A stretch of DNA of 24,000 nucleotides from Oleiharenicola lentus. Lineage in GTDB: Bacteria; Verrucomicrobiota; Verrucomicrobiia; Opitutales; Opitutaceae. How positions within the stretch are numbered: the first letter of the stretch is position 1; each line of letters begins with the position of its first letter. The DNA is taken from contig NZ_SDHX01000001.1 of the NCBI RefSeq assembly GCF_004118375.1, positions 1,095,693-1,119,692 of the forward strand. Direction: 5' to 3'. Both the position numbers and the translations under genes were made by a program. Of the stretch, positions 3,451 to 19,706 are shown in pieces. The notes under the pieces were generated by a model. It saw only the letters and a program-made list of their open reading frames with translations. It had not been told where the DNA came from and did not search any database.

Positions 3451-3461
3451 AGCGCCAACCT

Positions 3462-3527: not shown

Positions 3528-5027
3528 ATGAAAACATCCCGCGTAATCCCCGCCGCTCTCCTCGCCCTGGTGCTCGCCGCGCCTGCTTTCGCCTCCGAGG
3601 GCCCGACCGATGCCAAGGGCCCGGTCCTGCTGCCGCCCGACGTGCAGGCCCTGCCGGTCGAGCAGGCCATCCTCACCGCGCCACCCCACGTGCCGCCACC
3701 GATCAAGCGCAAGCACGCTGCGCGCGTCGTCGTTAACCTCGAGGTGCGTGAGGTCGTCATGCGCATCGCCGACGGCGCCGAATACACCTTCTGGACCTAC
3801 GGCGGCTCCGTGCCCGGCTCGTTCATCCGCATCCGCGAGGGCGATGTCGTGGAGTTCACGCTCAACAACCACCCGTCCTCGAAGCTCCCGCACAACATCG
3901 ACCTTCACGCCGTCACGGGCCCCGGCGGCGGCGCGGCCTCGACCTTCACCGCGCCGGGCCACGGCTCGAAGTTTACTTTCAAGGCCCTCAACCCCGGCCT
4001 CTACGTCTATCACTGCGCGACAGCGCCCGTGCCCATGCACATCGGCAACGGCATGTATGGCTTGATCCTCGTCGAGCCGAAGGACGGCCTGCCGTCCGTG
4101 GACAAGGAGTTCTACGTCATGCAGGGCGAGTTCTACACTCAGGGCGGCTTCGGCGCCTCCGGCCTGCAGACTTTCGACATGGCGAAGTCCATCGATGAAC
4201 ACCCCACCTATGTCCTCTTCAACGGCTCGGTCGGCGCACTCGTCGGCGACAAGGCCCTGGACACCAAGGTCGGCGACCACGTGCGCGTCTATTTCGGCGT
4301 GGGCGGTCCCAACCTTACCTCCTCGTTCCACGTCATCGGCGAAATTTTCGACAAGGTCTGGACCGAGGGCGGCATGAAATACGCCCAGGAACACGTGCAG
4401 ACGACGATGGTCCCCTCGGGCGGTTCGGCCATCCTTGAGTTCAAGATGGACGTGCCCGGCACCTACGTGCTCGTGGACCACTCGCTCAGCCGCGCGTTCA
4501 ACAAGGGTGCGCTCGGCATGCTCAAGGCCTCCGGTCCCGAGGACCGCGTGATCTACTCCGGCAAGGAGATCGACGCCGTTTATTTCGGTGCCGCCGCCGA
4601 AGAGGGTTCCGCCTCCGCCCGGCGCGAGGCCGAGCTGAAGGCGAAGATCGCGGCCGAGATCAAATCCAACCCCGCCATCGCCAGCCTCACCAAGGAGGTG
4701 CAGCTCGAGCGCGGCAAGCAGGTCTATATGGCCAGCTGCTTCGCCTGCCACCTGCCCGACGGCAAGGGCATGGCCAACGTCTTCCCGCCGCTCGCCGGTT
4801 CCGACTACCTCAAGGCCGACCGCGACCGCGCGATCCGCATCGTGCTCAAGGGCCTCACCGGCCCGGTCACCGTCAACGGCGTGAACTACAACAGCGCCAT
4901 GCCGCCGCAACCGCTCACCGACGAGCAGGTCGCCGACGTGCTCACCTACGTGACGAACAGCTGGGGCAACGAAGGCCCCGCCACCACCGTGGACGACGTC
5001 CGCCGCGTGAAGAACGAGACACACTAA
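3528..5027 (+). CDS. nirK: copper-containing nitrite reductase NirK with fused C-terminal mono-haem cytochrome c domain
   Basis: Signal peptide MKTSRVIPAALLALVLAAPAFA. T1/T2 copper ligands in HNIDLHAV and YVYHCATAPVPMHIGNGMYG (AniA-like class). The C-terminal domain carries CFACH plus a distal SAMPP methionine. The track ORF start (3351) would read through the promoter, so ATG 3528 is preferred. Confidence 0.9.
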   Translation: MKTSRVIPAALLALVLAAPAFASEGPTDAKGPVLLPPDVQALPVEQAILTAPPHVPPPIKRKHAARVVVNLEVREVVMRIADGAEYTFWTYGGSVPGSFIRIREGDVVEFTLNNHPSSKLPHNIDLHAVTGPGGGAASTFTAPGHGSKFTFKALNPGLYVYHCATAPVPMHIGNGMYGLILVEPKDGLPSVDKEFYVMQGEFYTQGGFGASGLQTFDMAKSIDEHPTYVLFNGSVGALVGDKALDTKVGDHVRVYFGVGGPNLTSSFHVIGEIFDKVWTEGGMKYAQEHVQTTMVPSGGSAILEFKMDVPGTYVLVDHSLSRAFNKGALGMLKASGPEDRVIYSGKEIDAVYFGAAAEEGSASARREAELKAKIAAEIKSNPAIASLTKEVQLERGKQVYMASCFACHLPDGKGMANVFPPLAGSDYLKADRDRAIRIVLKGLTGPVTVNGVNYNSAMPPQPLTDEQVADVLTYVTNSWGNEGPATTVDDVRRVKNETH

Positions 5028-5055
5028 AACGGTAGCGGCGCTCTATGAACGCCGT

Positions 5056-5074
5056 CGGCGGTCACAGACCGCCG
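5056..5074. repeat. intergenic GC hairpin CGGCGGTCacaGACCGCCG nested inside a 9-bp outer inverted repeat (GTAGCGGCG 5032-5040 / CGCCGCTAC 5070-5078)
   Basis: The complementarity was read directly. It lies between the nirK stop and the nirV-like start. No T-run follows. Confidence 0.4.
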
Positions 5075-5091
5075 CTACAACCAACCCTCCC

Positions 5092-5958
5092 ATGACTGCC
5101 ACCGTCCGCCGCGTCCGCCCTCCCGTCTGCGGCTCCGCCCTGTGTAACGTAATACGTTACACATGTGCCGGGGTGGCGCTCTTGGTGTTGACGGGCGTGG
5201 CCTTGGGTGGATCGGAAATCGAAAATCCTAATTCAAAAATCGAAAATGCCGCCATGCGGATGGTGCCGTCCGGCACCTATGTGCCCCTCCAACGCTCGAC
5301 CAAGGACCCCGAGCAGGTGCCCGTCGCCGCCTTCCGGCTCGACACCGCGCCCGTCACCAACGCCGACTTCCTCGCCTTCGTCACTGCCAACCCGAAGTGG
5401 CGTCGCTCCGCCGTGAGCCGGCTTTTCGCCGACACCTCCTATCTGGAGCACTGGACCGGCGACCTCGAGCCCGGCTTGCGCGCTCCGCTCGACGCCCCCG
5501 TCGTGCGCGTGTCGTGGTTCGCCGCGCGCGCCTACGCCCGCTGGTCCGGCAAGCGCCTGCCCAGCACCGCCGAGTGGGAACTCGCCGCCGCCGCCGGCTA
5601 CACCACCGCCTTCGGCAAGAACGAACCCGACTTCAACCGCGACCTCTACGCCTGGCTCGCCCGCCCGGTGCCGGAGGTGCTGCCCTCGGTCGCCACCGCC
5701 AAGCCCACGCTCCACGGCGTGCGCGGCCTGCACGGTCTCGTGTGGGAATGGGTGGACGACTTCAACACCGCCATGGTCACCGGTGAATCGCGCGCCGACA
5801 CCGGTCTGGAGCGCGACCTCTTCTGCGGCGCCGGAGCCGCCGGGGCGAAGGAGACGAGCGACTACGCCGCCTTCATGCGCTCCGCCCTTCGTGCCTCCCT
5901 GAAAGCCAACAACACCACCACCTCGCTCGGCTTCCGCTGCGCGGCTTCTCTCCGATGA
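5092..5958 (+). CDS. nirV: FGE-sulfatase/SUMF1-family protein, NirV-like
   Basis: MVPSGTY...RVSWFAARAYARWSGKRLPSTAEWELAA...GLHGLVWEWVDD...LGFRCA are the conserved blocks of the formylglycine-generating-enzyme fold. Position directly after nirK matches the known nirK-nirV arrangement. Confidence 0.7.
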   Translation: MTATVRRVRPPVCGSALCNVIRYTCAGVALLVLTGVALGGSEIENPNSKIENAAMRMVPSGTYVPLQRSTKDPEQVPVAAFRLDTAPVTNADFLAFVTANPKWRRSAVSRLFADTSYLEHWTGDLEPGLRAPLDAPVVRVSWFAARAYARWSGKRLPSTAEWELAAAAGYTTAFGKNEPDFNRDLYAWLARPVPEVLPSVATAKPTLHGVRGLHGLVWEWVDDFNTAMVTGESRADTGLERDLFCGAGAAGAKETSDYAAFMRSALRASLKANNTTTSLGFRCAASLR

Positions 5959-6722
5959 AAACGACGATTCCCCTGATCACCCTCCTCTTCGCGGCCAGCA
6001 TCGCCGCCTCCGACAAACCCGCCGCCTGCTGCCCGGCCGACACCAAGCCGAAGGCCGGCAGCTGCTGCACCGTTGAAAAGGCGGACAAGGCGGCCTGTTG
6101 CGCGGAAAAGCCCTCCGCCCCGGCCGCGTGCTGCGCGGAGAAGGCTCAACCCGCGGCGTGCTGCGCCCAAGCCGACGCACCCAAGCCCGCCGCCTGCTGC
6201 GAAGAGATCAAGGGCTCCGAAACCACCGCCTTCTCCTCCGAATCGCTTTATCAGCTCGAGGCCGGCTTTACCGACGACCGGGGCCGTTCCTTCACCCTCG
6301 GCTCGCTCCGCGGCCGCCCCGTCGTGCTCACCATGTTCTTCGCCTCCTGCAGCTACGCCTGCCCGCTGCTGCTCACCGACATGCAGGCCATCCATGCGAA
6401 GCTGCCGGCCGACATCCGCGACCGGGCTGCGTTCGTGCTCGTGTCCTTCGACGTTGCCCGCGACACGCCGGCCGCGCTCGCGCAATACCGCGCCGACCGC
6501 CACCTCGACGCGCAGTGGACGCTGCTCCACGGCGACGACGACGCGGTGCGCGAGCTCGCCGCGCTGCTCGGCGTGAAGTTCAAGCAGGAGGCCGACGGCC
6601 AGTTCGCCCACTCCAACCTCATCACCATTCTCAACGGCGGGGGCGAGGTCGTCCACCAGCGCACCGGCCTCCGCGGCGGCCTCGACGAAACCGCCCAGGC
6701 CATCGTGGCCGCGTCGCGCTGA
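5955..6722 (+). CDS. Sco1/SenC-family copper chaperone with Cys-Cys repeat N-terminal extension
   Basis: ATGA start/stop overlap with the upstream gene. Signal/anchor sequence present. Sco thioredoxin fold with VVLTMFFASCSYACP (CxxxC) and a downstream His (FAHSNLI). The region before the fold contains six CC dipeptides. Confidence 0.8.
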   Translation: MKTTIPLITLLFAASIAASDKPAACCPADTKPKAGSCCTVEKADKAACCAEKPSAPAACCAEKAQPAACCAQADAPKPAACCEEIKGSETTAFSSESLYQLEAGFTDDRGRSFTLGSLRGRPVVLTMFFASCSYACPLLLTDMQAIHAKLPADIRDRAAFVLVSFDVARDTPAALAQYRADRHLDAQWTLLHGDDDAVRELAALLGVKFKQEADGQFAHSNLITILNGGGEVVHQRTGLRGGLDETAQAIVAASR

Positions 6723-6852
6723 AACGGTGCTTCGAACCTGAGGAACGTATGCCGGAGGTCACCGAGCAGCTGGTTTCAAGTGGCATGGGTCTCCCGACCC
6801 GTGACCTCGTTCCCCACCGGTCGGCAGCCCCGGGCCAACTCTTCTGCTGCCC

Positions 6853-7281
6853 ATGACCACGGCTCTGCCGCAGATTCTCGATCAGCGCCGGCCCGAGATT
6901 CGGGCGCGGTGGGAGGCGCTGTTGCGCCTTGAAAAACCTGCCACGGCAATGGCCACGCCGGACATCCTCGTCCACCTCTTCGACCACACCCTCGACGACG
7001 TGCTGGCGCCCAAGCGTCCGGCCGGGAAACCGGTCGCCGCCGAGGGCAAACTGCCTGGCCGGTGTCATTGCAATCCGCTGCGCCCGTATTTCGCCACGCT
7101 TGAGCAGGCCCTGCTCGAAGCGCTCATCTGGGCGCAAGCCGCCGACTCCTCCCTCGACGCCGAGACCCGCGTCGCCCAGGTCGGCGAACTTTGCGAACGC
7201 CTGCGCCGCGTTGCGCACCGGGAGATCCTGCTCCTCGACGGCGTCTGCCAGTGCATCTGTGCGGAGTTGCCGCCGGCTTGA
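6853..7281 (+). CDS. hypothetical 142-aa soluble protein with CHC and CQCIC motifs
   Basis: Normal composition and an ATG start. The N-terminus (ILDQRRPEIRARWEALL) is reminiscent of RsbRD_N-type helical sensor domains. Its TGA stop lies inside box 3. Confidence 0.45.
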   Translation: MTTALPQILDQRRPEIRARWEALLRLEKPATAMATPDILVHLFDHTLDDVLAPKRPAGKPVAAEGKLPGRCHCNPLRPYFATLEQALLEALIWAQAADSSLDAETRVAQVGELCERLRRVAHREILLLDGVCQCICAELPPA

Positions 7282-7291
7282 TTCGCGTCAA
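7278..7291 (+). promoter_or_regulatory. FNR/Dnr-type box 3 (TTGATTCGCGTCAA, then ggc)
   Basis: TAGGGT lies at 7314-7319 (22-bp spacer). The azurin ATG is at 7327. Confidence 0.7.
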
Positions 7292-7326
7292 GGCGGGCGC
7301 GCGTCCGGCGCGCTAGGGTGGGGGCG

Positions 7327-7836
7327 ATGAAAATCCATTCCACCCTGATCCTCCCGTTTCTCGCCGCCGGTGCGCTCCTGCTTTCCGCCTGCGGCAAATC
7401 CGAAGCTCCCGCTGCCGCCGCGTCTGCGGCAGCCCCCGCCCCTGATGGCGTGAAAGCCGTCAGCATCACCGCCGACGACAGCATGAAGTTCAGCGTGACA
7501 GAGATCCGCGCCGTGGCCGGCGAGAAGGTGCGCGTAACGTTCAAGAACGTCGGTCGCATGCCCAAGCAGGCCATGGGGCATAACTGGATTTTGCTCGTGC
7601 CGATGGCCGACAATGAAGTGCTCGCGCTCGCCCAGGCGGCCGCCGCCCGCGCGCCGGAATACCAACCGGCCGATGCCACGAAAGTTCTCGCGCACACCAA
7701 GCTGCTCGGGCCCAACGAGAGCGACACCGTCGAGTTCACCGCACCCGCCACGCCCGGCGACTATCCCTTCGTCTGCACCTTCCCCGGCCACGCGGCCCTG
7801 ATGAAGGGCAAACTCATCGTCGCGCCCAAGTCTTGA
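7327..7836 (+). CDS. azu: lipoprotein azurin (type-1 blue copper protein)
   Basis: Lipobox LLLSAC. Azurin signatures AMGHNWIL and YPFVCTFPGHAALMKG supply the His, Cys, His and Met copper ligands. Confidence 0.85.
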   Translation: MKIHSTLILPFLAAGALLLSACGKSEAPAAAASAAAPAPDGVKAVSITADDSMKFSVTEIRAVAGEKVRVTFKNVGRMPKQAMGHNWILLVPMADNEVLALAQAAAARAPEYQPADATKVLAHTKLLGPNESDTVEFTAPATPGDYPFVCTFPGHAALMKGKLIVAPKS

Positions 7837-7846
7837 TGCGCGTCAA
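7833..7846 (+). promoter_or_regulatory. FNR/Dnr-type box 4 (TTGATGCGCGTCAA, then ggc)
   Basis: Overlaps the azurin TGA stop (7834-7836). TACAAC lies at 7869-7874 (22-bp spacer). ATG is at 7882, with GTG at 7879. Confidence 0.7.
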
Positions 7847-7881
7847 GGCCGCGCGCGGCGCGGCCTGCTACAACCTTCGTG

Positions 7882-9300
7882 ATGTCTGCCCCGGCCGCCG
7901 TTCCCCTCGCGTCCCCGACCTTCGTCCCGTCTCCGGCGGTGGCGGCGGCCGGTGCGCGTTTTCCCGCCGCGGCCCGCGGTTGGTTCGCCTTTGGCGTCGG
8001 CAGCCTCGTGCTTGCGGGTCTGCTCTCGCTCCTGCTCGTCGTCGGCCGCCTGCCGTTCCTAGGCTGGCTGTTCACCGACCCGCTGTTCTTCAAACGCGCC
8101 CTCGTGGTGCATGTCGATCTGGCAATCGTCATCTGGTTTCAGGCCGGCGCCCTCGCGTATCTCGCCTGGGCGGTCGGCTCCCGGGTGCCACGCGGCCTCA
8201 CCGTCGCGTCGGTCGTGCTCGCCGGGCTCGGCATCCTTGGCCTGCTGGCCGGCGCGGTGATGCCGGGGGCACAGCCCATCCTCGCCAACTACGTGCCGGT
8301 CGTGGATCACCCGGTGTTTGTTGCCGGGCTCGTGGCGTGGTTCGCCGGCAGCGGCCTGTATTTTGCCGGCGCGCTCGCGGTGCCGGCGGAGCCGTCGGCG
8401 GCGCTGCCCGATGACGCGCTCGTCGCGCTGCGTGCCTCGGCCGCGGCGCACCTCATCGCGCTGGCGACCTTCGCCGCGGCTTGGCGCACGACGCTGCCGG
8501 GCCTGCCGGCCATCGGCTACTACGAGTTGGTGGCCTGGGGCGGGGGACACGTCATGCAGGTCGGCAACGTCGCCCTGATGCTCGGGCTGTGGTTGCTCCT
8601 GCTCCGCCGCTGGTCCGGCGAGAGCGTGGTCTCGCCCGCCACCATCCGCTGGCTGGCGGTGGCGCTGGTGCTGCCGCAGGCGGTGATGCCCTGGGTGGCC
8701 TGGGGCGGCACGTCGCGGCCGGCTTATTCCGAGATCGCGACGCAGCTGATGCGATGGACGATTTTCCCCGTGGTTCTGATCGTGCTCGGCCTGGGTATCC
8801 GGCACGTCGTGCGGCATGCGGCGAACCGCTCCGCCGGGGGCGGCTGGCGCCTCGTCGGCCTCGCCGGCAGCGCGCTGCTCACCGTGCTGGGCTTCGTGCT
8901 CGGCGCCTTCATCCGCGGCTCCAGCACGCTCGTGCCGGGCCATTACCACTGCGCCATCGGCGCAGTCACTCTCGCGCTGATGACGGCGGCCTACGACTTC
9001 AGCCGCGAGGCCGCGCCGCGCGCCCTCGGCCCGTCGCCGCGGCTCATCCGCTGGCAGCTCGTGCTCTTCGGCGCGGGGCAGGCCGTGTTCGGCCTCGGCT
9101 TTGCACTGGCCGGCGCCTTCGGCCTCGGGCGCAAGCAATACGGCGTCGAGCAGCATGTGCGCTCGCTCGGCGAATACCTCGGCCTCGGCGTGATGGGCCT
9201 CGGCGGTCTCGTGGCGGTGGCCGGCGGCCTCCTCTTTCTCGCCGTCATGCTCCGCGGTCTCGCGGCGTGGCGCACGCGTTCCCTTTCCCCCTCACCATGA
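7882..9300 (+). CDS. divergent 12-TM heme-copper-oxidase subunit-I paralog lacking the helix-VII His-His pair
   Basis: Clear block homology to the subunit I at 10033: ANYVPVVDHPVF vs TSYLPLLAHPAF, WGGGHVMQVGNVALMLGLWLLL vs WGLGHQSQQVNVCAMVAVWYLL, and VPGHYHCAIGAV vs IPGHFHVTVVGG. The helix-II His (VVHVDLAIVIWF) is kept. No HH is present where SAHHLL sits in the paralog. Confidence 0.7.
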   Translation: MSAPAAVPLASPTFVPSPAVAAAGARFPAAARGWFAFGVGSLVLAGLLSLLLVVGRLPFLGWLFTDPLFFKRALVVHVDLAIVIWFQAGALAYLAWAVGSRVPRGLTVASVVLAGLGILGLLAGAVMPGAQPILANYVPVVDHPVFVAGLVAWFAGSGLYFAGALAVPAEPSAALPDDALVALRASAAAHLIALATFAAAWRTTLPGLPAIGYYELVAWGGGHVMQVGNVALMLGLWLLLLRRWSGESVVSPATIRWLAVALVLPQAVMPWVAWGGTSRPAYSEIATQLMRWTIFPVVLIVLGLGIRHVVRHAANRSAGGGWRLVGLAGSALLTVLGFVLGAFIRGSSTLVPGHYHCAIGAVTLALMTAAYDFSREAAPRALGPSPRLIRWQLVLFGAGQAVFGLGFALAGAFGLGRKQYGVEQHVRSLGEYLGLGVMGLGGLVAVAGGLLFLAVMLRGLAAWRTRSLSPSP

Positions 9301-9446
9301 AAAACGAATCCGAAAAACACCCCTGGCAGAAGGTCCTCGACAATCCGTGGCTGCTCCTGGCCCTCGGCGTCCTCGTGCCCTTCCTGTCCTACACCGCGTG
9401 GGGCTGGATCGAGCTCCTGCTCATCAAGCCCGCGCAGCTCCCCTGA
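9297..9446 (+). CDS. 49-aa single-TM membrane peptide (possible small oxidase subunit)
   Basis: ATGA overlap with the upstream stop. Sequence MKNESEKHPWQKVLDNPWLLLALGVLVPFLSYTAWGWIELLLIKPAQLP has one hydrophobic helix. It forms the last 49 codons of track ORF 8481..9446; the rest of that ORF is an Arg/Pro-rich artefact. Confidence 0.5.
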   Translation: MKNESEKHPWQKVLDNPWLLLALGVLVPFLSYTAWGWIELLLIKPAQLP

Positions 9447-9458
9447 ACCGCCGCCGCC

Positions 9459-10010
9459 ATGAGCCTCCGCCCTCTCACCTCCCCCTGGTTCCACGCCCCC
9501 GCCGGCCATGAAAAGCTCTGGCTCGGTGTCGCCATTCTCTGGTGCTTCGTGATGTCGCTGATGATGCCCTACTGGCACTTTCGCGGGAAACAGAACAGCT
9601 CCGGCGAGGCCTACGCCGTCATGCCCGCCGATTTTCTCGCGCGCACCGAGAAATTCGTCGAGGCCAACCGCGTCGGCACCTTCAAGAACCCCACGCCCAA
9701 CGCCTTCGCGGCCGAGCTGCCGCTGGTGGAGCCGCCGGCCGGCGGCGACGCCTACCTCGTGGGCCGCATGTGGCAGTGGTATCCCGCGCTGCGCCTGCGG
9801 CAGGGCGAGACCTACCGCATCCACCTCTCCGCGCTCGACCTGCAGCACGGCTTCTCGCTCCAGCCGCTCAACATGAATTTCCAGGCCGTGCCCGGCTACG
9901 ACCACGTGCTCACGCTCACGCCCACGTCGAAGGGCGAGTTCACCATCGTCTGCAACGAATTCTGCGGCATCGGGCACCACGCGATGACCGGCAAGATCTT
10001 CGTCGAATAA
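9459..10010 (+). CDS. HCO subunit II with complete CuA site (cupredoxin domain, one N-terminal TM helix)
   Basis: CuA ligands are present: DLQHGFSL (His) and CNEFCGIGHHAM (C-x-E-x-C-G-x-x-H-x-x-M). Confidence 0.8.
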   Translation: MSLRPLTSPWFHAPAGHEKLWLGVAILWCFVMSLMMPYWHFRGKQNSSGEAYAVMPADFLARTEKFVEANRVGTFKNPTPNAFAAELPLVEPPAGGDAYLVGRMWQWYPALRLRQGETYRIHLSALDLQHGFSLQPLNMNFQAVPGYDHVLTLTPTSKGEFTIVCNEFCGIGHHAMTGKIFVE

Positions 10011-10032
10011 CCCCGCGACCCTCCCGCCTCCC

Positions 10033-11757
10033 ATGACCTCCGTCTCCGCCACCTTGCCCGTCGGCCCGCACTCGTTGGCCGCGCCCGCCACGCCGAAGCG
10101 CGTCTGCGCCACCACCGGCCTCGGCGTCTGTCTCGACGCCCAGCGTTTCATCAAGCTGCACGCCGTCGTCGGCGTCGTCTTCCTGCTCCTCGGCGGCATC
10201 GCCGCGTTGCTGCTCGCCCTCACGCGCTGGCAGACCGTGCACCTGCTGCCCGCCGACTGGTTCTACCGCGTGCTGACCTTCCACGGCATCAACATGCTGA
10301 TCTTCTGGATCCTGTTCTTCGAGGTCGCCATCCTCTACTTCGCCTGCACCACGCCGCTCAACGCGCGGCTCTTCTCGCGCAAGGTGGCCTGGGTCGGCTT
10401 CGCCCTCATGGGCGTCGGCGCGGTGATGGTGGACTGGGTCATCCTCGCGGGGAAGGCCGACGTCATGATGACGTCCTACCTGCCGCTGCTCGCACACCCC
10501 GCGTTCTACCTCGGCATCATCCTCGTGGCCGTGGGCACGCTGGTCGGCGTGTTCAATTTCTTCGCCACGCTCTACGTCGCCAAGCGGGACCGCGCCTACG
10601 AAGGCTCGATGCCCATCGTGACCTTCGGCGCGCTGGCCGCGGCGATCATCGCGGTGGTCACGCTCCTGCACGGCGCCATCGTCATGATCCCGACCTTTGC
10701 CTACTCGATGGGTTGGATCGGCCAGCCCGACCCGATCTGGTATCGCATCATCTGGTGGGGCCTCGGCCACCAGTCGCAGCAGGTCAACGTCTGCGCCATG
10801 GTCGCGGTCTGGTATCTGCTCTCGCACGTCATTGTCGGCGCGCGCCCGGTCAACGAGGCGGTCTGCCGCACGGCCTTCGCGCTCTACATTTTGTTCATCA
10901 ACATCGCGTCGGCCCACCACCTGCTCGTGGACCCGGCGGTCGGCTCGGCCTGGAAGATCTGGAACACCTCCTACGCGATGTATCTCGCGGTGCTCGCGTC
11001 CATGGTCCACGGCTTCACGGTGCCGGCCGGCGTCGAGATCGCCATGCGCGAGAAGGGTTACACGCGCGGTCTCTTCGGCTGGGTCGTCGCCCTGCCGTGG
11101 CGCAACCCGGCGCTCTCGGGCACCGTGCTCTCGGTGATCATCTTCGGCTTCCTCGGCGGCATCACCGGCGTCACGCTCGGCACGCAGCAGATCAACATCA
11201 TCGCGCACAACACACTGCGCATCCCCGGCCACTTCCACGTCACCGTGGTGGGCGGCACCACCCTGGCGTTCATGGCGCTGGCCTACTACGTGATTCCGCT
11301 GTTCTTTCAGCGCGACTTCATCTGGCGCGGCCTCGCCCGCCTCCAGCCCTGGCTGTTCGGTCTCGGCATCGTCATGCTGTCCTTCGGCATGTCCTTCGCC
11401 GGCTCGATGGGCGTGTCCCGTCGCAGCTGGGACATCGACGCGCAGGGTGTTTACGGTTCGGCGGCCCACCTCTGGCTCGGTGTGCTCGGCCTCGGCGGCG
11501 TGCTGGCCTTTGTCGGCCTGCTGGCTTTCGTACTGCTGTGCGTTGGCACGCTCCTCTTCGGCGAGAAGAACCACGGTCGGCCGATGGCCGACTGGGGCAC
11601 GCCGCCCGCACTCGCCGGGGCGCAGGCCGGTTCGCTGGCCGACAACCACTCGGCGACCAAGGGCACGATCGTGCTGACCCTGGTGTTCCTGGCCTGCTTC
11701 GCGGTTTATTACTTCGCCAACTGGAAGGCGCTGGCCGACGTGTGGCCCGTGCGGTGA
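10033..11757 (+). CDS. HCO superfamily subunit I, B-family-like, lacking the cross-linked Tyr (candidate alternative NO reductase catalytic subunit)
   Basis: The helix-II haem ligand is His84 (TFHGINMLIFW). The helix-VI ligand is His246, with Gln at the +4 position where Tyr sits in O2 reductases (WWGLGHQSQQVN). Helix VII has HH (SAHHLLVDP). Helix X has PGHFHVTVVGG. Confidence 0.8.
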   Translation: MTSVSATLPVGPHSLAAPATPKRVCATTGLGVCLDAQRFIKLHAVVGVVFLLLGGIAALLLALTRWQTVHLLPADWFYRVLTFHGINMLIFWILFFEVAILYFACTTPLNARLFSRKVAWVGFALMGVGAVMVDWVILAGKADVMMTSYLPLLAHPAFYLGIILVAVGTLVGVFNFFATLYVAKRDRAYEGSMPIVTFGALAAAIIAVVTLLHGAIVMIPTFAYSMGWIGQPDPIWYRIIWWGLGHQSQQVNVCAMVAVWYLLSHVIVGARPVNEAVCRTAFALYILFINIASAHHLLVDPAVGSAWKIWNTSYAMYLAVLASMVHGFTVPAGVEIAMREKGYTRGLFGWVVALPWRNPALSGTVLSVIIFGFLGGITGVTLGTQQINIIAHNTLRIPGHFHVTVVGGTTLAFMALAYYVIPLFFQRDFIWRGLARLQPWLFGLGIVMLSFGMSFAGSMGVSRRSWDIDAQGVYGSAAHLWLGVLGLGGVLAFVGLLAFVLLCVGTLLFGEKNHGRPMADWGTPPALAGAQAGSLADNHSATKGTIVLTLVFLACFAVYYFANWKALADVWPVR

Positions 11758-11766
11758 TTCCGGAAC

Positions 11767-11847
11767 TGTAGGGCGGGGTCTCCGAACCCCGCCTTGCGTC
11801 GATCGCGGTAACACGTCCGTGGCGGGGTTCGGAGACCCCGCCCTACA
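11767..11847. repeat. perfect 27-bp inverted repeat (TGTAGGGCGGGGTCTCCGAACCCCGCC / GGCGGGGTTCGGAGACCCCGCCCTACA) with a 27-bp spacer; REP/MITE-like element or terminator
   Basis: Arms at 11767-11793 and 11821-11847 are exact reverse complements. Each arm also folds on itself (GGCGGGG...CCCCGCC). Confidence 0.75.
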
Positions 11848-11858
11848 ACCAAGCAAAC

Positions 11859-12821
11859 ATGCTCATCCCCGCCCACGCCCCTGACGCCCCGCCGGCCGCT
11901 GCCTCCGCCGGCTCCCGCTTCTTCACCGGACCGGGCCTGCTGGTGTTTTTGGGCGCGGCGCTGACCGGCTACGAGGCGTTCCTGCTGCTGACCATCTTCG
12001 GCCCGACCGGAGAGGGTGCGCTGGGCGGCTTCGTGCGGGATTTCCAGCAATGGTGCTACCAGGGCGACCCGCGCACGGGCGGCATGTCGTGGGCCGCCGT
12101 CAGCATCATGTTGCTCGAGCCCGTCATGGTCGTGCTCGTGGCCGGAGTGCTTTGGCGCGATACGGTGGTGCAGCTGCGCTCGCCGGCGCTGTGGCTCCGC
12201 CACCTGCGGGCGGCGGCGGCCGGCCTGGTCGTGGTCGCGGCCGCGGTGGCCGGGCTGGTCGGGTATGCGCAGAGCGATCGTGCCGGCGGGGCTGTGCTCC
12301 CGCCGTTTCCCGGCGAACGCATCCGCGTGCAGCTTGCGGTGCCTGACAAGCCGCTCGTGGACCAGAAGGGCACGCCCTTCCGCCTCGCCGACCTGCGCGG
12401 GCAGGTGGTGCTCGTGACCGGCGTCTATGCCTCATGTTCGACGGCGTGCCCGGAAGTATTCAAGGAGCTGCGCGCCGTGCTGGGCGAACTGCCCGCCGCT
12501 GACCGCGCCGGGTTGCACGTCGTCGCGCTGTCGCTCAACCCCGAATACGAGACTGCCGAGATCATGGACGCCATGGCCGGCGCGCAGGGGCTGGCGTTTC
12601 CCGAGTTCCGTTACGTCAATGGCGAGCGCCCCGACGAGATGCGCGACCTGCTCAAGAGCCTGCAGTTCTCCGTCACGCGCGATCCGGAGACGGGGGTCCT
12701 GAATCACGCGAATCTCTTCCTACTGATTGATCGCGAGGGCCGCATCGCCTTCCGCTTCACGCTCGACCCGCGCCACCGCGCCTGGCTGCGCGAGGGCCTG
12801 CTGCACCTGCTCCGCGAATGA
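11859..12821 (+). CDS. membrane-anchored Sco1/SenC-family protein (multi-TM N-terminal domain plus Sco fold)
   Basis: VVLVTGVYASCSTACP (CxxxC) and a downstream NHANLFLLID His. Three to four N-terminal TM helices. Confidence 0.75.
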   Translation: MLIPAHAPDAPPAAASAGSRFFTGPGLLVFLGAALTGYEAFLLLTIFGPTGEGALGGFVRDFQQWCYQGDPRTGGMSWAAVSIMLLEPVMVVLVAGVLWRDTVVQLRSPALWLRHLRAAAAGLVVVAAAVAGLVGYAQSDRAGGAVLPPFPGERIRVQLAVPDKPLVDQKGTPFRLADLRGQVVLVTGVYASCSTACPEVFKELRAVLGELPAADRAGLHVVALSLNPEYETAEIMDAMAGAQGLAFPEFRYVNGERPDEMRDLLKSLQFSVTRDPETGVLNHANLFLLIDREGRIAFRFTLDPRHRAWLREGLLHLLRE

Positions 12822-14947
12822 GCGCACACCCGCATCCTGAACCGGACTGCGAGGCGCTGGCGGACAATCTGGGCGCTGGTCCTACGCCGGGGGCTGTTCC
12901 GCCTCAGCCGCCGGTCCGCGCCGCGCGGCTGTTTGCCGCGGGCGAAGCGCTTCTCACGCGCCTCGACACGCTGATTGAGCGCGTCTGGCCGCGGGCGCTC
13001 AATCCGCTGGCGCAGCTCGGGCCGGCGACCAACGCCATGCTGCTGCTCGCCACGCTCTCGGGCGTGCTGCTGCTGATCTGGTATTCGGCCAGTGTGCAGT
13101 CGGCGTGGTCGTCGCTGGCGGAACTGGGTCCGCGTTCCGCCGGCGGGATCGTGCGCAGCGTCCACCGCTATTCCTCGGACCTGGCGATGCTGCTCATGCT
13201 GCTGCACGCGCTCCGCACGCTGCTGGCGCGCAAGTTCGCCGATGCGCGCTGGTTGGCCTGGGTGAGCGGCGTGGGGATGCTCGGTCTCGTCTGGTTCATC
13301 GGCTGGACGGGTTACTGGCTGGTGTGGGACGAGCGCGCGCAGCTCGTTGCCACGGGCACGATGAAGGCGGTGGACGTGCTGCCGGTGTTCGGCGAGCCGA
13401 TGCTGCCGCTCTTCAACCATGACCGCACGGTGCCCTCGCTGCTGTTCTTCGTGGTGTTCTTTCTGCACATGGTGCTGCCGCTCGCGATCACCGGTGGGCT
13501 GGCCCTGCATCTGGCGCGCCTGAGCCGGTCGCGCCTGCTGCCCGACCGCCGGCTCACGGCCTGGCTCACCGGGGCGGTGTTCGTTGCGGCCCTGCTCGTG
13601 CCGGCCACCAATGCCGCGTCGGCCCATCTGGCGGTGAAGCCGGCGGCGTTCAGCCTGGACTGGTGGTTTTTGTGGCCGTTGCAACTGACCGCGCGGCTCA
13701 GCGGCCCCGGACTCTGGCTGGCGGCCGGACTGGCCGCCGCCGGACTCTTCACCGTGCCGTGGTGGCTCGCCCGCCGCCGGCTCCGCCCGGCTTTCCAGGC
13801 GACCGTGGATGTTTCTCGCTGCTTTTCATGCACGCTTTGCTCGCACGACTGCCCCTTCGGCGCCATCACGATGGTGCCGCGCACGGACGGGAAACCCTTT
13901 CCCTCGCAGGCGCAGGTGGACCCCGACCGCTGTATCGGCTGCGGCATCTGTGCCGGGGCCTGCGACACCCAGGGCATCGGGCTCGCGTGGTTCGACGCGC
14001 GGCGGGTCGGGCGCGAGCTGGAGGGAATGGTCGCGACGGAACACGCGCGCGGGGCGCGGCCGGCGATCGCCTTTGTCTGTGCGCAGGGTGACGGTGGCTG
14101 GGAACTTTTCGATCATGTGGGCTGGGCGCGGCGGCTGCCCGGCTACACGGTCCGTCCCGTGCCCTGTTCCGGTTGGGTCGAGCCGAAGCTCATCGAACGG
14201 CTCGTGACGAAGGGCGCCGCGGCCGTGCTCATCGTGGGGTGCGGCTCGGCCGAGACCTTCGGCCGCGAGGGCAACCGGTGGATGCCGGCGCGCATCTCCG
14301 GCACGCGCGAGCCTGCGCTCCGGCCCAACCGCGCCGATCCGCTTCGCGTCGCGCACGTGGACTTCGATCCGATCCGCCCGGAACGGCTGGCCATGGTGGC
14401 CGCCGGTCTGCTCCGGGCGGCAGACCCGGCCCCGGCGGTGCACACCGGGCGCACCGCGGGCTGGCTCGCGGGCCTCGGCGTCGCGGTGGCCGGACTGGCC
14501 GGGCTGCTGGCGCTGGCGAACGCGCCATTCCGCAGCCCCGAGCCGCCGGAGCCGGAGTTCATCGTGATGTTCCGCACTTACGGCGACTGGGTCGAAGGCG
14601 TGGCCGCCGACGCGACGCCGGCGGGCGAGGACCAGCGACCGGTGCACATGCGCGCCGCGCAACCGGTGCAGCGCACGCGGCAACCGGTGGTCGTGCGGGT
14701 GACGGTCAACGGCCGCACCGAGGAGCACGTCGTGCGCCCCAAGGGTTTTACTTCCGACGGCATGGCGGTCGGCGAGGTGCGGTGGCGTCTCGCGCCCGGG
14801 GCCCAAACCGCCGAGGTTTACCTGTGGACCCGCGGTGACACCACGGGCGAGCCGGCCCGCCGTTGGCGCGCCGAGTGGACCGCGCAGGCTCGACGCCGAC
14901 ATGTCCTCGCCTACGAGCCCGAAGCCGGTTTTATCTGGGCGCCCTGA
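12818..14947 (+). CDS. fusion protein: di-haem cytochrome b domain + 2x[4Fe-4S] ferredoxin + MvhD/FlpD-like domain + TM helix + C-terminal domain of unknown function
   Basis: ATGA overlap with the upstream gene. Two His pairs are spaced 14 residues apart: SVH116...LLH130 and FLH217...LH231. GWTGYWLVWDERAQ resembles the cytochrome b G-Y-x-L-P-W motif. Two ferredoxin motifs: CFSCTLCSHDCP and CIGCGICAGAC. AFVCAQGDG...PCSGWVEPKLIERLVTKGAAAVLIVGCG resembles hydrogenase delta-subunit-like domains. Confidence 0.65.
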   Translation: MSAHPHPEPDCEALADNLGAGPTPGAVPPQPPVRAARLFAAGEALLTRLDTLIERVWPRALNPLAQLGPATNAMLLLATLSGVLLLIWYSASVQSAWSSLAELGPRSAGGIVRSVHRYSSDLAMLLMLLHALRTLLARKFADARWLAWVSGVGMLGLVWFIGWTGYWLVWDERAQLVATGTMKAVDVLPVFGEPMLPLFNHDRTVPSLLFFVVFFLHMVLPLAITGGLALHLARLSRSRLLPDRRLTAWLTGAVFVAALLVPATNAASAHLAVKPAAFSLDWWFLWPLQLTARLSGPGLWLAAGLAAAGLFTVPWWLARRRLRPAFQATVDVSRCFSCTLCSHDCPFGAITMVPRTDGKPFPSQAQVDPDRCIGCGICAGACDTQGIGLAWFDARRVGRELEGMVATEHARGARPAIAFVCAQGDGGWELFDHVGWARRLPGYTVRPVPCSGWVEPKLIERLVTKGAAAVLIVGCGSAETFGREGNRWMPARISGTREPALRPNRADPLRVAHVDFDPIRPERLAMVAAGLLRAADPAPAVHTGRTAGWLAGLGVAVAGLAGLLALANAPFRSPEPPEPEFIVMFRTYGDWVEGVAADATPAGEDQRPVHMRAAQPVQRTRQPVVVRVTVNGRTEEHVVRPKGFTSDGMAVGEVRWRLAPGAQTAEVYLWTRGDTTGEPARRWRAEWTAQARRRHVLAYEPEAGFIWAP

Positions 14948-15341: not shown

Positions 15342-15818
15342 ATGACCCTGCCCCCGCCTCGCACCCGCATGCTTCTGCTCGTGGCCATCGCCGCCACGCT
15401 GGGACTGTTCGCGGGCCTCGGCGGCTATACGTTTACCTACGCGCACGGGCTGTCGTATTTTTCCAACGACCCCACGGCGTGCGTGAACTGCCACATCATG
15501 CGCGAGCAGTTCGACGGCTGGCTGAAGGGCCCGCACCATGCCGTCGCCACCTGCAACGACTGCCACACGCCGCACAGCTTCATCCCGAAATACCTCAGCA
15601 AGGCCGAAAACGGCTTCTGGCACTCCAAGGGTTTCACGCTCCAGGATTTTCACGAGCCGATCATCATCCGCAAACGGAACATCGCCGTGCTCCAGGAAAA
15701 CTGCGTGTCCTGCCACCAGCAGATCGTGGATGGCATCAACACCCACCCCGGCGACCCGCAGAAGATGCTCGATTGTCTCCATTGTCACCGCGAGGTCGGC
15801 CACGGGCCGATGAAGTGA
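15342..15818 (+). CDS. nrfH: NrfH/NapC-family membrane tetrahaem cytochrome c quinol dehydrogenase
   Basis: N-terminal TM helix. Four CxxCH motifs: CVNCH, CNDCH, CVSCH, CLHCH. Typical size of about 160 aa. Confidence 0.85.
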
Positions 15819-17505: not shown

Positions 17506-17590
17506 GTTCGGGTGGCATGGGTCTCCCGACTCATGCTGCCGCGCGCCGAATGGATCGCGGGTCGTGAGATCCGCGGCACATCGCCAAAAC

Positions 17591-18830: not shown

Positions 18831-18875
18831 GGCGCGCGGCGCGGCCTTGGGCTAGGGTGGGGCGTTCGCCATGCC

Positions 18876-19340: not shown

Positions 19341-19352
19341 ACCAAAACCGCC

Positions 19353-19706
19353 ATGTCCGCCGCCCTCCTTCCCTCCGACCAAGCCGCCGTATGCCCGCTG
19401 ACGGCTCCCGCGCAAAATGTAGCCCACGGCATCGTGAGCCAGGCTGTGCTCACCGCGCCCGGCCTGCGCGTGACGCTGTTCCGTTTTGCCGCCGGTCAGG
19501 AACTGTCCGAGCACACGACCCCGGCCCGCGCGCTGGTGCAGGTGTTGGCGGGCGTCTGCGAGTTCACGTTTCCCGACCGCAAACAAAGGATGGTCGCGGG
19601 CGATCTCCTGCACATGCCGCCGAAGCTGCCGCACGCCGTGCGCGCTGTCGAGGATCTGACGATTCTCATCACGCAGGCGACGCCGCCGGCCAAGCCGCTT
19701 GATTAG
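19353..19706 (+). CDS. cupin-domain protein (117 aa)
   Basis: G-x-E-L-S-E-H-T...VLAGVCEFTF...GDLLHMPPKLPHAV fits the two-motif cupin pattern. It starts 12 bp after the upstream gene. Confidence 0.6.
   Translation: MSAALLPSDQAAVCPLTAPAQNVAHGIVSQAVLTAPGLRVTLFRFAAGQELSEHTTPARALVQVLAGVCEFTFPDRKQRMVAGDLLHMPPKLPHAVRAVEDLTILITQATPPAKPLD

Follow-up and report, generated by a model that had tools for sequence, protein, structure and literature searches.

Gene organization of the locus

The window analysed here, a 24,000-nucleotide stretch of DNA from Oleiharenicola lentus, contained a cluster of six genes encoding, in order, a paralogue of HCO subunit I, a 49-aa peptide, a CuA-carrying subunit II, subunit I, a long Sco protein and a 709-aa fusion protein (Table 1). 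The last of these is a membrane electron-transfer protein, in which a dihaem cytochrome b is followed by two [4Fe-4S] motifs, an MvhD-like domain, a transmembrane (TM) helix and a β-sandwich. A preliminary description of this DNA had reported translational coupling of the fusion gene to a membrane Sco and a position directly after HCO genes, and both statements hold: the Sco stop codon overlapped the fusion-gene start (ATGA at 12818), and Pfam assignments across the window placed the HCO genes directly upstream of the Sco and fusion genes. The Sco protein carried an N-terminal extension of ~150 aa with three hydrophobic helices (by hydropathy).

Table 1. Positions in the window of the fusion gene, its parts and the neighbouring genes of the cluster
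Feature	Position (nt)	Strand	Evidence
Divergent subunit I paralogue, 473 aa, first gene of block	7879..9300	+	BLASTP vs subunit I
Single-helix peptide, 49 aa, resembling a small oxidase subunit	9297..9446	+	sequence
HCO subunit II	9459..10010	+	PF00116; CuA motif H...CNEFCGIGHHAM
HCO subunit I, B-family-derived, probably eNOR-type	10033..11757	+	PF00115
Sco/SenC copper chaperone	11859..12821	+	PF02630 at aa 166-295
Whole fusion gene, 709 aa	12818..14947	+	ORF and translation, Pfam, full-length relatives, AlphaFold model
Cytochrome b module, aa 36-320	12923..13777	+	PF00033, PDB b6 match, Foldseek, hydropathy
Haem-ligand His codons H116 (13163-13165), H130 (13205-13207), H217 (13466-13468), H231 (13508-13510)	13163..13510	+	
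GWTGYWLVWD, aa 162-171	13301..13330	+	alignment to b6
PEWY-like loop SLDWWFLWPLQLT, helices E-F, aa 279-291	13652..13690	+	sequence inspection and model helix order
Two [4Fe-4S] motifs, aa 330-388	13805..13981	+	Fer4 families (Pfam), invariant Cys
MvhD/FlpD-like α/β domain, aa ~412-520	14051..14377	+	PF02662
Motif VGCGSAETFGREGN, aa 473-486	14234-14275	+	holds C475 and T480
Seventh TM helix, aa 545-567	14450..14518	+	hydropathy peak 2.08; helix in model
β-sandwich, predicted periplasmic, aa 568-709	14519..14944	+	domain model pLDDT 89.7

The best PDB match of subunit I was ba3 (E 2e-44), and its three active-site histidines were in place (GH, AHH and GHFH all present). At the cross-link Tyr position in helix VI it had Gln, with GHQSQQ aligning to GHPIVY of ba3; Gln at this position is the signature of eNOR, and Asn that of sNOR (Table A4 in PMC8756737). 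Subunit II had a complete CuA motif, found also in all 62 related loci, and no cytochrome c domain. Judged from these residues, the neighbouring HCO is probably an NO-reducing enzyme of the eNOR type. In a cultured isolate of the Verrucomicrobiota whose N-oxide gene inventory is the same, custom HMMs assigned an enzyme to the eNOR clade (PMC13274419), and within the eNOR family NO reduction without O2-reductase activity has been demonstrated only for the Rhodothermus marinus enzyme (PMC11214002). The ATG of the 49-aa peptide overlapped the stop codon of the gene upstream, and a gene of the same size occupied the same place in three related loci (L081, L083 and L086). The subunit I paralogue, present in 50 of 52 loci, shared 25% identity with subunit I (BLASTP, E 7e-14) and retained the histidines of helices II, VI and X, without the His pair of helix VII.

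Genes of N-oxide metabolism and NO stress (NirK, NnrS, Rrf2, RIC and Usp) made up the wider context in the window and related loci. No ORF with a Rieske motif was found within ±7 kb in 49 loci, or in the Pfam scans of the window, and no cytochrome c1 or f was encoded with the fusion gene. The cluster encoded no cytoplasmic partner (flavoprotein or ferredoxin), and neither the window nor any of 80+ related loci contained a hydrogenase or an HdrA-type flavoprotein.

Domain architecture and predicted topology of the fusion protein

The unusual multi-domain fusion outlined in the preliminary description was borne out, with every motif listed there found at its residue in the translation and the Cytochrome_B, Fer4 and FlpD domains all matched by Pfam HMMs. 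The whole 709-aa chain was modelled confidently by AlphaFold as a single chain (pLDDT 89.3, pTM 0.88). Its cytochrome b module comprised an N-terminal surface helix and six TM helices (A-F), the counterpart of cytochrome b6 together with helices 1 and 2 of subunit IV. PF00033 matched aa 55-236 (77.2 bits, cut-off 27.2, E 2e-21), a PDB sequence match to cytochrome b6 (E 1e-18) provided a residue alignment, and the best Foldseek matches were full-length bc1 cytochromes b over 280-360 columns. Helices B and D carried the pairs H116/H130 and H217/H231, each with a spacing of 14 residues (in b6 the histidines of helix D are one residue further apart); all four aligned to the ligand histidines of b6 and were invariant in the 44 diverse relatives over which residue conservation was scored. 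By alignment to b6, the p-side haem would be held by H116/H217 and the n-side haem by H130/H231.

The segment GWTGYWLVWD, at the end of helix C, was the counterpart of b6 'TGYSLPWDQ' and bc1 'PWGQ' in the p-side quinol pocket, with WLVWD aligning to LPWDQ of b6 and both W170 and D171 present in 44/44 relatives; as the most conserved stretch of the family, it served as the scan pattern. In the loop between helices E and F, D281 (within LDWWF) lay at the position of the PEWY Glu and was Asp in 41 and Asn in three of the 44 relatives; the equivalence of SLDWWFLWPLQLT to PEWY is our reading from inspection of the sequence and the helix order of the model, and not from an alignment output. The haem cn Cys was absent, b6 'FYCLGG' aligning to 'LAQLGP'. 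These comparisons establish the module as a dihaem cytochrome b of the bc1/b6 type in which the quinol-pocket motifs of the p-side are retained.

The first [4Fe-4S] motif consisted of C335, C338, C341 and C345 (within CFSCTLCSHDCP, aa 335-346) and the second of C372, C375, C378 and C382 (CIGCGICAGAC, aa 372-382), all eight being invariant among relatives. This region was similar to the C-terminal ferredoxin domain of HdrA (5odc_A 551-650, E 2e-10), and residues 325-495 aligned to residues 569-729 of HdrA2 (NCBIfam NF040770, E 8e-19), that is, to its C-terminal ferredoxin and MvhD parts. The FlpD match (aa 442-516) scored 28.0 bits against a cut-off of 22.3, and relatives gave stronger matches (E 1e-10 to 1e-12). 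The MvhD-like domain had C421, C450 and C475; the position of the fourth Cys was occupied by T480, so that GC-x4-C was incomplete, in line with the missing second Cys that had been remarked on for the GC-x-x-x-CH block. The first three cysteines were found in 43/44 relatives and the fourth in 28/44. The four MvhD cysteines are, we assume from the MvhD literature, ligands of a [2Fe-2S] cluster.

Hydropathy and the AlphaFold model both showed the extra TM helix and the β-rich tail of the preliminary description. This seventh helix returns the chain to the periplasm, and in some relatives a cytochrome c comes after the same helix. The tail had a conserved loop (...L-P-x-H610-M611-R612, nt ~14603-14665) as well as conserved G643 and D647; it gave no match in Pfam, in PDB profiles or, by Foldseek, in the PDB at E<=1e-3, in keeping with the earlier statement that it held no recognisable motif. 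It contained no Cys in the window protein and no recognisable cofactor motif, and no acceptor for a first electron was evident. Given the cytochrome b fold, the chain must start on the n-side and helix F must end there, and the charge bias agrees, with five K+R to one D+E in the D-E loop and RRRLR after helix F. On the question of which side of the membrane the domains face, the Fe-S and MvhD-like domains are predicted to be cytoplasmic and the tail periplasmic.

Relatives and conserved gene context

Database searches found 915 relatives of the fusion protein. More than 120 were full-length, with 62-96% identity and the same domain set; a further 360 clusters (at 50% identity) were matched at E<=1e-30, many spanning residues ~30-707, and at least 600 stretches of the species-genome set encoded a relative. 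Two relatives, P0201 and P0254, ended in a cytochrome c instead of the β-sandwich, and the gene for P0201 lay in an HCO cluster of the same kind. Among solved structures, the third-ranked match of this cytochrome c domain was the cytochrome c domain of caa3 oxidase subunit II (1w2l, E 1e-7), behind, among others, a dihaem protein (E 2.9e-8). One database protein (P0130) fused Sco to a fusion-type cytochrome b. A short paralogue of 487 aa was encoded in another locus (L074), outside any HCO cluster.

Subunit I and Sco genes lay directly upstream of the fusion gene in 61 of the 62 loci with enough upstream DNA, and H-x-[SA]-Q-Q was read in all 64 readable partner HCOs, so the co-occurrence with Tyr-less HCOs, which had been proposed as a check at the outset, extends well beyond this genome. 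The synteny spanned Verrucomicrobiota, Myxococcota, Planctomycetota, Rhodothermales and Balneolaceae, and included relatives of only 26-39% identity. In L081 a fusion-type gene directly followed subunit I, with Sco genes at the opposite end of the cluster.

Comparison with known systems

With cytochrome b of the bc1 and b6f complexes (PF00033) the fusion protein shares the four histidines of helices B and D, the PWDQ/PWGQ motif of helix C and a PEWY-like Asp loop, and its helices A-F superpose on bc1 cytochrome b. It differs in lacking the haem cn Cys and in having cytoplasmic Fe-S domains in place of helices G and H, and its gene has no nearby Rieske gene (0/49 loci) or cytochrome c1/f and is tied to the HCO cluster instead of a complex III operon. 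Complex III was considered as the system to which the gene might belong, and was set aside with no Rieske protein or cytochrome c1/f at the loci examined.

NarI-NarH, HdrE-HdrD and QmoC follow the same plan, in which a quinol site and two stacked haems are combined with Fe-S clusters in the cytoplasm, but their anchors work for a catalytic subunit on the cytoplasmic side and lack a periplasmic domain. The cytochrome b fold of these anchors is that of another family (the NarI type), and no NarI-type Pfam match was obtained in the fusion protein. The ferredoxin and MvhD unit resembles that of HdrA2 (NF040770) and the Hdr-Mvh structures (5odc), as judged from the alignment of aa 325-495 and the FlpD match. 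Here, however, this unit is joined to a membrane cytochrome b, and the HdrA flavin domain, HdrBC, hydrogenase and fourth MvhD Cys are all missing.

A further parallel was found in an eNOR operon of Ferrigenium straubiae, where two 'rather unusual' genes for cytochrome b with [Fe-S] were reported, the proteins being partly similar to bc1 chain C and detected in the proteome during Fe(II) oxidation coupled to nitrate reduction, and where a quinol:NAD+ oxidoreductase supercomplex was put forward as speculation (10.64898/2026.01.22.701106). Those genes likewise lie beside eNOR subunits II and I, sco1 and a 'scaffold' gene; the likeness is one of description, with homology presumed. One of the two proteins also has FAD and NADH domains, unlike the protein studied here, and neither an MvhD-like or periplasmic domain, nor a seventh helix, nor a wide distribution is mentioned in the preprint. 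In view of this 2026 preprint, the preliminary remark that such an arrangement was not known for a NOR no longer fully holds.

Geobacter CbcL and CbcBA also couple a dihaem b-type quinone oxidoreductase to a membrane-tethered periplasmic cytochrome c, an arrangement resembling that of P0201 and P0254, and no Rieske protein is mentioned for them (bioRxiv 10.1101/2021.04.15.440034); in contrast to the present family, CbcB is related to hydrogenase-type cytochrome b, cytoplasmic Fe-S is absent and the role is extracellular electron transfer. The sNOR cluster of ammonia oxidisers (norSY-senC-orf1) and the Bacillus CuA-NOR cluster have a B-family-derived, Tyr-less CuA HCO followed by Sco and a membrane-protein gene, with Asn there and Gln here at the Tyr position. 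The extra gene of the Bacillus cluster encodes a six-helix protein of ~190 aa without haem b or Fe-S motifs, and Nitrosomonas eutropha has the same cluster organization (PMC3475470). Membership of the sNOR cluster was rejected on two grounds, the Gln and a fourth gene encoding a 709-aa cytochrome b/Fe-S fusion instead of the six-helix orf1 product.

Proposed function and alternative explanations

The fusion protein, the last conserved product of the six-gene eNOR-type cluster, is most likely the dedicated membrane redox partner of that enzyme. More specifically, we tentatively favour, with somewhat less than even confidence, a Rieske-less quinol-oxidising redox partner through which the quinone pool would be connected with the CuA site in the periplasm and with an Fe-S relay in the cytoplasm. 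Menaquinol would be oxidised at the periplasmic face, one electron passing outwards to the CuA of eNOR, carried either by the periplasmic domain on its tether or by a soluble protein (cupredoxin or cytochrome), and the other from the p-side to the n-side haem and on to the Fe-S relay, a Q-cycle-like split made without Rieske protein or c1. In the clade of the window, which has probably lost the fourth MvhD-like Cys and a Cys pair of the tail, the relay may be simplified. This reading is favoured by domain identity and invariant ligands (the four histidines, eight Fe-S cysteines and W170/D171, with D281 near-invariant), by the topology and the cytochrome c tails of P0201 and P0254, by the 61/62 synteny with a partner that always has Gln and a full CuA subunit in an N-oxide context, by the lack of a Rieske motif in 49 loci, and by the independently proposed supercomplex with its proteins in the proteome (10.64898/2026.01.22.701106). 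Against it count the missing evident acceptor of the first electron, the three of four MvhD cysteines, the lack of a cytoplasmic partner in the cluster, and the Sco coupling, which suits a role in biogenesis equally well; R. marinus eNOR, moreover, reduces NO with artificial donors, and no cytochrome b subunit is mentioned for it (PMC11214002).

The gene had originally been proposed to encode a quinol-oxidising electron-input or electron-bifurcating module. The anatomy fits such a module, as the p-side quinol-site motifs are kept, the Fe-S domains are predicted cytoplasmic and the tail periplasmic, and some relatives end in cytochrome c; quinol oxidation, the direction of flow and bifurcation are parts that we infer. 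That the fusion protein and eNOR form a Rieske-less, Q-cycle-like bifurcating supercomplex appears unlikely. In such a complex the very high potential of NO reduction would pull one menaquinol electron to CuA, and the other would be forced across both haems against the membrane potential to low-potential Fe-S clusters on the cytoplasmic side, from which electrons would go to ferredoxin, or to NAD+ in variants with FAD/NADH domains. If true, this would be a new coupling of denitrification to the production of low-potential reductant, and would make the old question of energy conservation by NO reduction directly testable.

A rather improbable alternative to the redox-partner reading is a biogenesis factor that, together with the long Sco, matures eNOR outside the catalytic electron path, for example by supplying transmembrane electrons that keep copper or Sco reduced at CuA insertion, or by supporting the synthesis or insertion of modified haem. 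The translational coupling to Sco, the position immediately after it in 61/62 loci and the unusual three-helix membrane extension of this Sco all speak for such a role, as do the modified haem a of eNOR and the haem-synthesis genes of many eNOR operons (PMC11214002), with UbiA present in one locus here (L082). The Sco-cytochrome b fusion P0130 points the same way, but it is a single case that may be a gene-call artefact. Against biogenesis speaks L081, where the fusion-type gene directly follows subunit I and the Sco genes are at the other end. A thiol-disulfide relay to Sco is impossible in the window protein, as its tail has no Cys; cytochrome c tails like the CuA-donor domain of caa3 point instead to catalytic electron delivery, and for a chaperone the apparatus would be large, with a pair of haems, a pair of [4Fe-4S] clusters and the conserved motifs of a quinol site.

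It is also unlikely that the protein is a one-way wire, carrying electrons from a cytoplasmic reductant through Fe-S, the n-side haem and the p-side haem to eNOR and bypassing the quinone pool in a fast, non-conserving detoxification of NO. The linear layout from cytoplasmic Fe-S over two stacked haems to a periplasmic domain would suit this, in HdrA/Mvh complexes the ferredoxin and MvhD unit serves for the entry and relay of electrons, and the NO-stress genes (RIC, Usp, NnrS and Rrf2) are consistent with it. The quinol-pocket motif, however, is what the family conserves best (W170 and D171 in 44/44, D281 in 41/44) and would be needless in a pure wire, and neither a donor-specific domain nor a donor partner gene is present.

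Less probable still is an inward loop of the NarI/NarH type, in which periplasmic quinol oxidation would send both electrons to a cytoplasmic acceptor, leaving the link to eNOR regulatory or one of co-expression only. Its layout of p-side quinol site, two haems and cytoplasmic Fe-S is that of NarI-NarH (NarI in PMC3475470) and HdrE-HdrD, and the short paralogue of L074 exists outside HCO clusters; yet such a loop would leave the seventh helix, the conserved domain in the periplasm, the variants with cytochrome c and the near-obligate eNOR synteny unexplained, no catalytic cytoplasmic subunit is encoded, and the potential of HdrA-type ferredoxin clusters would usually be too low for electrons to run downhill from menaquinol without assistance. 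Finally, a frameshift or assembly fusion of separate cytochrome b, ferredoxin and MvhD genes, raised solely as a caveat in the preliminary description, found no supporting evidence and was rejected as having a negligible probability, since length and domain order agree across hundreds of independent full-length relatives (NCBI, JGI, ENA and Logan assemblies), the cultured isolate Fodinibius halophilus has a family member, and the whole chain models confidently.

Domain architecture of the fusion protein

The fusion protein is a bc-type cytochrome b with no Rieske protein encoded nearby; it carries Hdr/Mvh-type Fe-S modules and would serve eNOR, a haem-copper oxidase (HCO)-type NO reductase, as a dedicated partner. 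The ORF, on the forward strand, translates into 709 residues, in which the elements named in the preliminary description were recovered as stated: the His pairs H116/H130 and H217/H231 (spacing of 14 residues in each pair), the GWTGYW block (GWTGYWLVWD at 162-171), the two [4Fe-4S] motifs (CFSCTLCSHDCP at 335-346 and CIGCGICAGAC at 372-382) and a GC block without its second Cys (VGCGSAETFGREGN at 473-486, with T480 at the fourth-Cys position). An HMM check of the proposed cytochrome b, Fer4 and FlpD assignments found Pfam support for all three, with Cytochrome_B at aa 55-236 (E 2e-21), several Fer4 families at aa 330-388, and FlpD at aa 442-516 (28.0 bits relative to a cut-off of 22.3). No NCBIfam model was specific to the fusion protein; the best cytochrome b matches there were ExtP and cytochrome b6, and residues 325-495 aligned to the C-terminal ferredoxin and MvhD part of HdrA2 (E 8e-19). 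The nearest solved structures by sequence were cytochrome b6 (E 3e-18) and HdrA in its C-terminal ferredoxin domain (5odc_A 551-650, E 2e-10). Geobacter CbcBA was considered as a relative and rejected, being an analogue only, with a cytochrome b of the hydrogenase type.

In an alignment of 44 diverse family members (residue numbers are those of the window protein), the four haem His, W170, D171 and the eight Fe-S Cys were invariant, D281 was kept in 41, and the MvhD-like C421, C450 and C475 were each present in 43, with the fourth MvhD-like Cys in 28. Alignment to cytochrome b6 identified H116/H217 as the p-side and H130/H231 as the n-side haem ligands, and matched GYWLVWD to the cytochrome b6 motif GYSLPWDQ; the Cys binding haem cn had no counterpart in the fusion protein, and the helix D His spacing was bc1-type, unlike the b6-type. 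By inspection, SLDWWFLWPL (279-288) is the putative counterpart of the PEWY loop, with Asp replacing Glu. A single-chain AlphaFold model built on the same alignment (pLDDT 89.3, pTM 0.88) consisted of helices A-F, an α/β region (328-533), a long helix (545-567) and a β-sandwich (569-708). Foldseek matched the whole model to full-length bc1 cytochrome b over 280-360 columns, so that the membrane part corresponds to cytochrome b through helix F.

Membrane topology and the C-terminal tail

A hydropathy scan gave seven helices. In the cytochrome b fold, both the N-terminus and the end of helix F face the cytoplasm; the D-E loop carries five K+R relative to one D+E, and helix F is followed by RRRLR. 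Fold and charges together assign the Fe-S and MvhD-like domains to the cytoplasm and the tail to the periplasm. Independent support for a periplasmic tail came from two database relatives (P0201 and P0254), in which a cytochrome c domain replaces the β-sandwich behind the seventh helix. Among solved structures, the P0201 domain matched the dihaem protein 7zs0 (E 2.9e-8) and, third-ranked, 1w2l (E 1e-7), the cytochrome c domain of caa3 oxidase subunit II; in caa3 oxidases this domain donates electrons to CuA. P0201 (4152..6461 of related locus L081) is encoded in the same kind of HCO block, where the Sco genes lie upstream of the oxidase genes, unlike their usual place between subunit I and the fusion gene.

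Modelled alone, the tail reached a pLDDT of 89.7. It had no Pfam match, no PDB profile match and no Foldseek match in the PDB at E<=1e-3 (generic sandwiches only, TM ~0.3). It contains a conserved loop, L-P-x-H610-M611-R612 (39-41 of 44 members), together with G643 and D647; the window protein has N631 where 41 of 44 have Asp. A Cys pair flanks the HMR loop in 25 of the 44 members and is absent from the window protein. In the alignment columns of window residues 480 and 595/617, 24 members had both the fourth MvhD Cys and the tail Cys pair, 15 had neither and five were mixed. These covarying positions lie on opposite sides of the membrane, and their paired loss may reflect phylogeny alone.

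Size of the family and earlier descriptions

A word-indexed search returned 915 relatives, with more than 120 full-length proteins (about 705-712 aa, 62-96% identity) carrying an identical precomputed domain set. An exhaustive search gave 3364 matches among 50%-identity representatives, 360 of them at E<=1e-30, many of which were 650-730 aa long and covered residues ~30-707 at 30-48% identity. A frameshift or assembly artefact joining separate genes, a possibility raised beforehand, was ruled out by these hundreds of full-length relatives with the whole architecture; since distant relatives are also full-length, tail included, the whole architecture represents an old and widespread family. Public databases list its members under unspecific or misleading names ('cytochrome b N-terminal domain-containing protein', 'hydrogenase iron-sulfur subunit', 'ferredoxin/F420-reducing hydrogenase delta subunit'). 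Two database proteins are single cases that could be genuine fusions or gene-call/assembly artefacts, and no conclusion rests on either: P0130 combines Sco, cytochrome b and Fer4 in a single chain, and P0079 consists of a subunit I (COX1) fragment followed by a family protein.

The paper defining these NOR families makes no mention of a cytochrome b/Fe-S gene of this type (PMC11214002). In a 2026 preprint on Ferrigenium straubiae, the usual eNOR operon consists of eNOR II, eNOR I, haem o synthase, sco1 and a 'scaffold' protein, with two further genes called 'rather unusual', one encoding cytochrome b, [Fe-S], FAD and NADH parts and the other cytochrome b and [Fe-S]; the proteins were detected in a published proteome, and the authors suggest a supercomplex coupling NO reduction to NAD+ reduction (10.64898/2026.01.22.701106). 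The initial statement that no such arrangement was known for any NOR therefore has to be narrowed, the association of cytochrome b/[Fe-S] with eNOR having been seen once, in one genus. Not reported in the preprint are how widely the family is distributed, its MvhD-like domain, seventh helix and periplasmic domain, and the cytochrome c variants.

Gene neighbourhood and conserved synteny

The window is an N-oxide island with both routes from nitrite, a NirK-cytochrome c set versus NrfHA (see table). On the NirK side are the NirV-like FGE protein, the second Sco and the cupredoxin. The NirK ORF overlaps a YwiC-like ORF, and one of the two starts is therefore probably wrong.

Predicted features of the window (window positions)
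Feature	Position	Strand	Source
YwiC-like ORF	2638-3450		
NirK with C-terminal cytochrome c	3351-5027	+	Pfam scan
FGE-sulfatase (NirV-like) protein	5092-5958	+	
Sco (second copy)	5955-6722	+	
orf6853, no Pfam or NCBIfam match	6853-7281	+	
Cupredoxin	7318-7836	+	
473-aa subunit-I paralogue	7879-9300	+	
49-aa single-helix peptide	9297-9446	+	
HCO subunit II, full CuA motif	9459-10010	+	
HCO subunit I	10033-11757	+	
320-aa Sco, three extra N-terminal helices	11859-12821	+	
Fusion protein	12818-14947	+	
NrfH	15342-15818	+	
NrfA	16039-17505	+	
orf17564, no Pfam or NCBIfam match	17564-18820	+	
orf18857, no Pfam or NCBIfam match	18857-19702	+	
orf19751, no Pfam or NCBIfam match	19751-20575	+	
Crp/Fnr regulator	20530-21273	+	
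RIC/ScdA	21796-22518	+	
Usp	22607-23071	+	

The gene order (subunit II, subunit I, Sco, fusion gene) agreed with the placement after the HCO genes originally reported, as did the translational coupling, the ATG at 12818 overlapping the stop codon of the Sco gene. In a scan of one genome per species, at least 600 stretches encoded a relative of the fusion protein, and synteny was counted in the best 80 of these loci by tblastn with all window proteins; these 80 span Verrucomicrobiota, Myxococcota, Planctomycetota, Rhodothermales and Balneolaceae. The proposed co-occurrence with Tyr-less HCOs was borne out: subunit I and the long Sco lay directly upstream on the same strand in 61 of 62 loci with at least 3 kb upstream, H-x-[SA]-Q-Q was present in all 64 readable partner subunits I, and the CuA motif in all 62 subunits II. 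The subunit-I paralogue was found in 50 of 52 loci with at least 5.2 kb upstream, the gap between Sco and fusion gene was mostly a few bases or an overlap, and no ORF with a Rieske motif occurred in 49 loci of at least 12 kb. The sole exception to the 61/62 synteny, L074, encodes a 487-aa short paralogue (6884..8347) with cytochrome b and Fer4 only, no FlpD match and no tail, which lies outside any HCO cluster among cytochrome P450 and housekeeping genes. Relatives at just 26-39% identity (L082-L085) share this block, and NnrS, NirK-cytochrome c or UbiA is encoded in its vicinity. A functional tie to the downstream nrfHA was rejected, NrfH/NrfA being adjacent in just 3-4 of the 80 loci. The four ORFs without domain matches recurred near the cluster in 10 (orf6853), seven (orf18857), four (orf17564) and two (orf19751) of the 80 loci.

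The 473-aa product, a divergent subunit-I paralogue (25% identity, E 7e-14), has no Pfam match. It retains the His of helices II, VI and X but not the His pair of helix VII, and could thus bind haems but not a full CuB/FeB site. Perhaps it corresponds to what the Ferrigenium preprint names the 'eNOR scaffold protein'; in related loci its gene opens (or closes) the cluster. The 49-aa ORF starts with an ATG that overlaps the stop codon of the paralogue gene (ATGA). In three related loci (L081, L083 and L086) an equally long gene is called at this position, and the single-helix product is similar to the small third subunit of ba3-type oxidases. The long Sco owes its size to an N-terminal extension of ~150 aa (11859..12338), which contains three hydrophobic helices and matches no Pfam family; the Sco of related clusters is likewise ~300-330 aa long, ordinary Sco proteins having about 200 aa.

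The neighbouring oxidase

The closest solved structure to HCO subunit I was Thermus ba3 (E 2e-44), in the alignment to which GHQSQQ falls on GHPIVY, replacing the cross-link Tyr by Gln, and Ser is kept at the K-channel Ser309 position. Residue-level definitions of the NOR families were taken from PMC8756737, where a table lists Q at the Tyr position for eNOR, N for sNOR and the Bacillus CuA-NOR, and D for gNOR; by this signature the window HCO is eNOR-like. Custom HMMs placed the enzyme of a cultured Verrucomicrobiota isolate in the eNOR clade; this isolate reduces nitrite to N2O and shares the NirK (with its cytochrome c) and NrfAH inventory of the window (PMC13274419). The biochemically characterised eNOR is that of Rhodothermus marinus; no protein of that organism was among the best 120 matches to a Rhodothermales subunit I query.

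Identity of the fusion gene with 'orf1' of the ammonia-oxidiser sNOR cluster (norSY-senC-orf1) was rejected: Bacillus clusters, said by their authors to be organised like the sNOR cluster of Nitrosomonas eutropha, have a ~190-aa six-helix protein as the corresponding gene product (PMC3475470). The Gln, not Asn, at the Tyr position also contradicts membership of an sNOR cluster.

Possible role of the fusion protein

While the observation in the preliminary description held as a whole, its functional interpretation, a quinol-oxidising electron-input or bifurcating module, was supported in part only: the bc1-type dihaem cytochrome b, the conserved p-side pocket and the cytoplasmic 2x[4Fe-4S] and MvhD-like domains agree with it, and no evidence fixes the direction of electron flow. 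We tentatively regard the fusion protein as a redox partner of eNOR in a general sense. Menaquinol would be oxidised by the cytochrome b part at the periplasmic face, one electron passing to CuA of eNOR via the tethered periplasmic domain or a soluble carrier and the other crossing the membrane via the two haems to the cytoplasmic Fe-S relay; true bifurcation is improbable. The cytochrome c variants favour electron delivery to the oxidase and the conserved p-side pocket favours quinol chemistry, while the β-sandwich without a visible cofactor site, the absence of a cytoplasmic partner encoded in the cluster and the loss of one MvhD Cys in the window clade speak against this reading.

A biogenesis role together with Sco is rather doubtful. 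One specific candidate, a thiol-disulfide relay from the tail to Sco, was rejected for the window clade, whose tail has no Cys. The protein could also serve as an outward wire from a cytoplasmic reductant, which we regard as unlikely; an inward NarI/NarH-like loop is very unlikely.

As a redox partner of eNOR, the fusion protein would be of interest mainly as a lead to how electrons enter a widespread enzyme that forms N2O, and to its possible energy coupling. Enzymes of the eNOR type are thought to be responsible for much of the NO reduced and N2O formed in the environment (PMC11214002); in the eNOR literature searched, the physiological electron donor is not named and energy coupling is a prediction. 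The fusion protein adjoins such an enzyme in at least several hundred species of several phyla and is the obvious candidate for connecting eNOR with the quinone pool and the cytoplasm. Should it prove to be an electron-input or splitting module, the energy that its carriers gain from denitrification would have to be counted differently, and it would be a rare natural case of a bc1-type cytochrome b that works with no Rieske protein. Irrespective of what the fusion protein does, the six-gene block (from subunit-I paralogue to fusion gene) marks this enzyme system in genomes more sharply than do the oxidase genes by themselves, whose mis-annotation as cytochrome c oxidase is routine. Cultured carriers make the question testable, and a possible experimental host is Fodinibius halophilus (GCA_011059105.1, JAALLS010000012.1; locus L086), in which genes for an Rrf2-family regulator, a porin, a cupredoxin and NirK lie ahead of the complete block (4822..11965).
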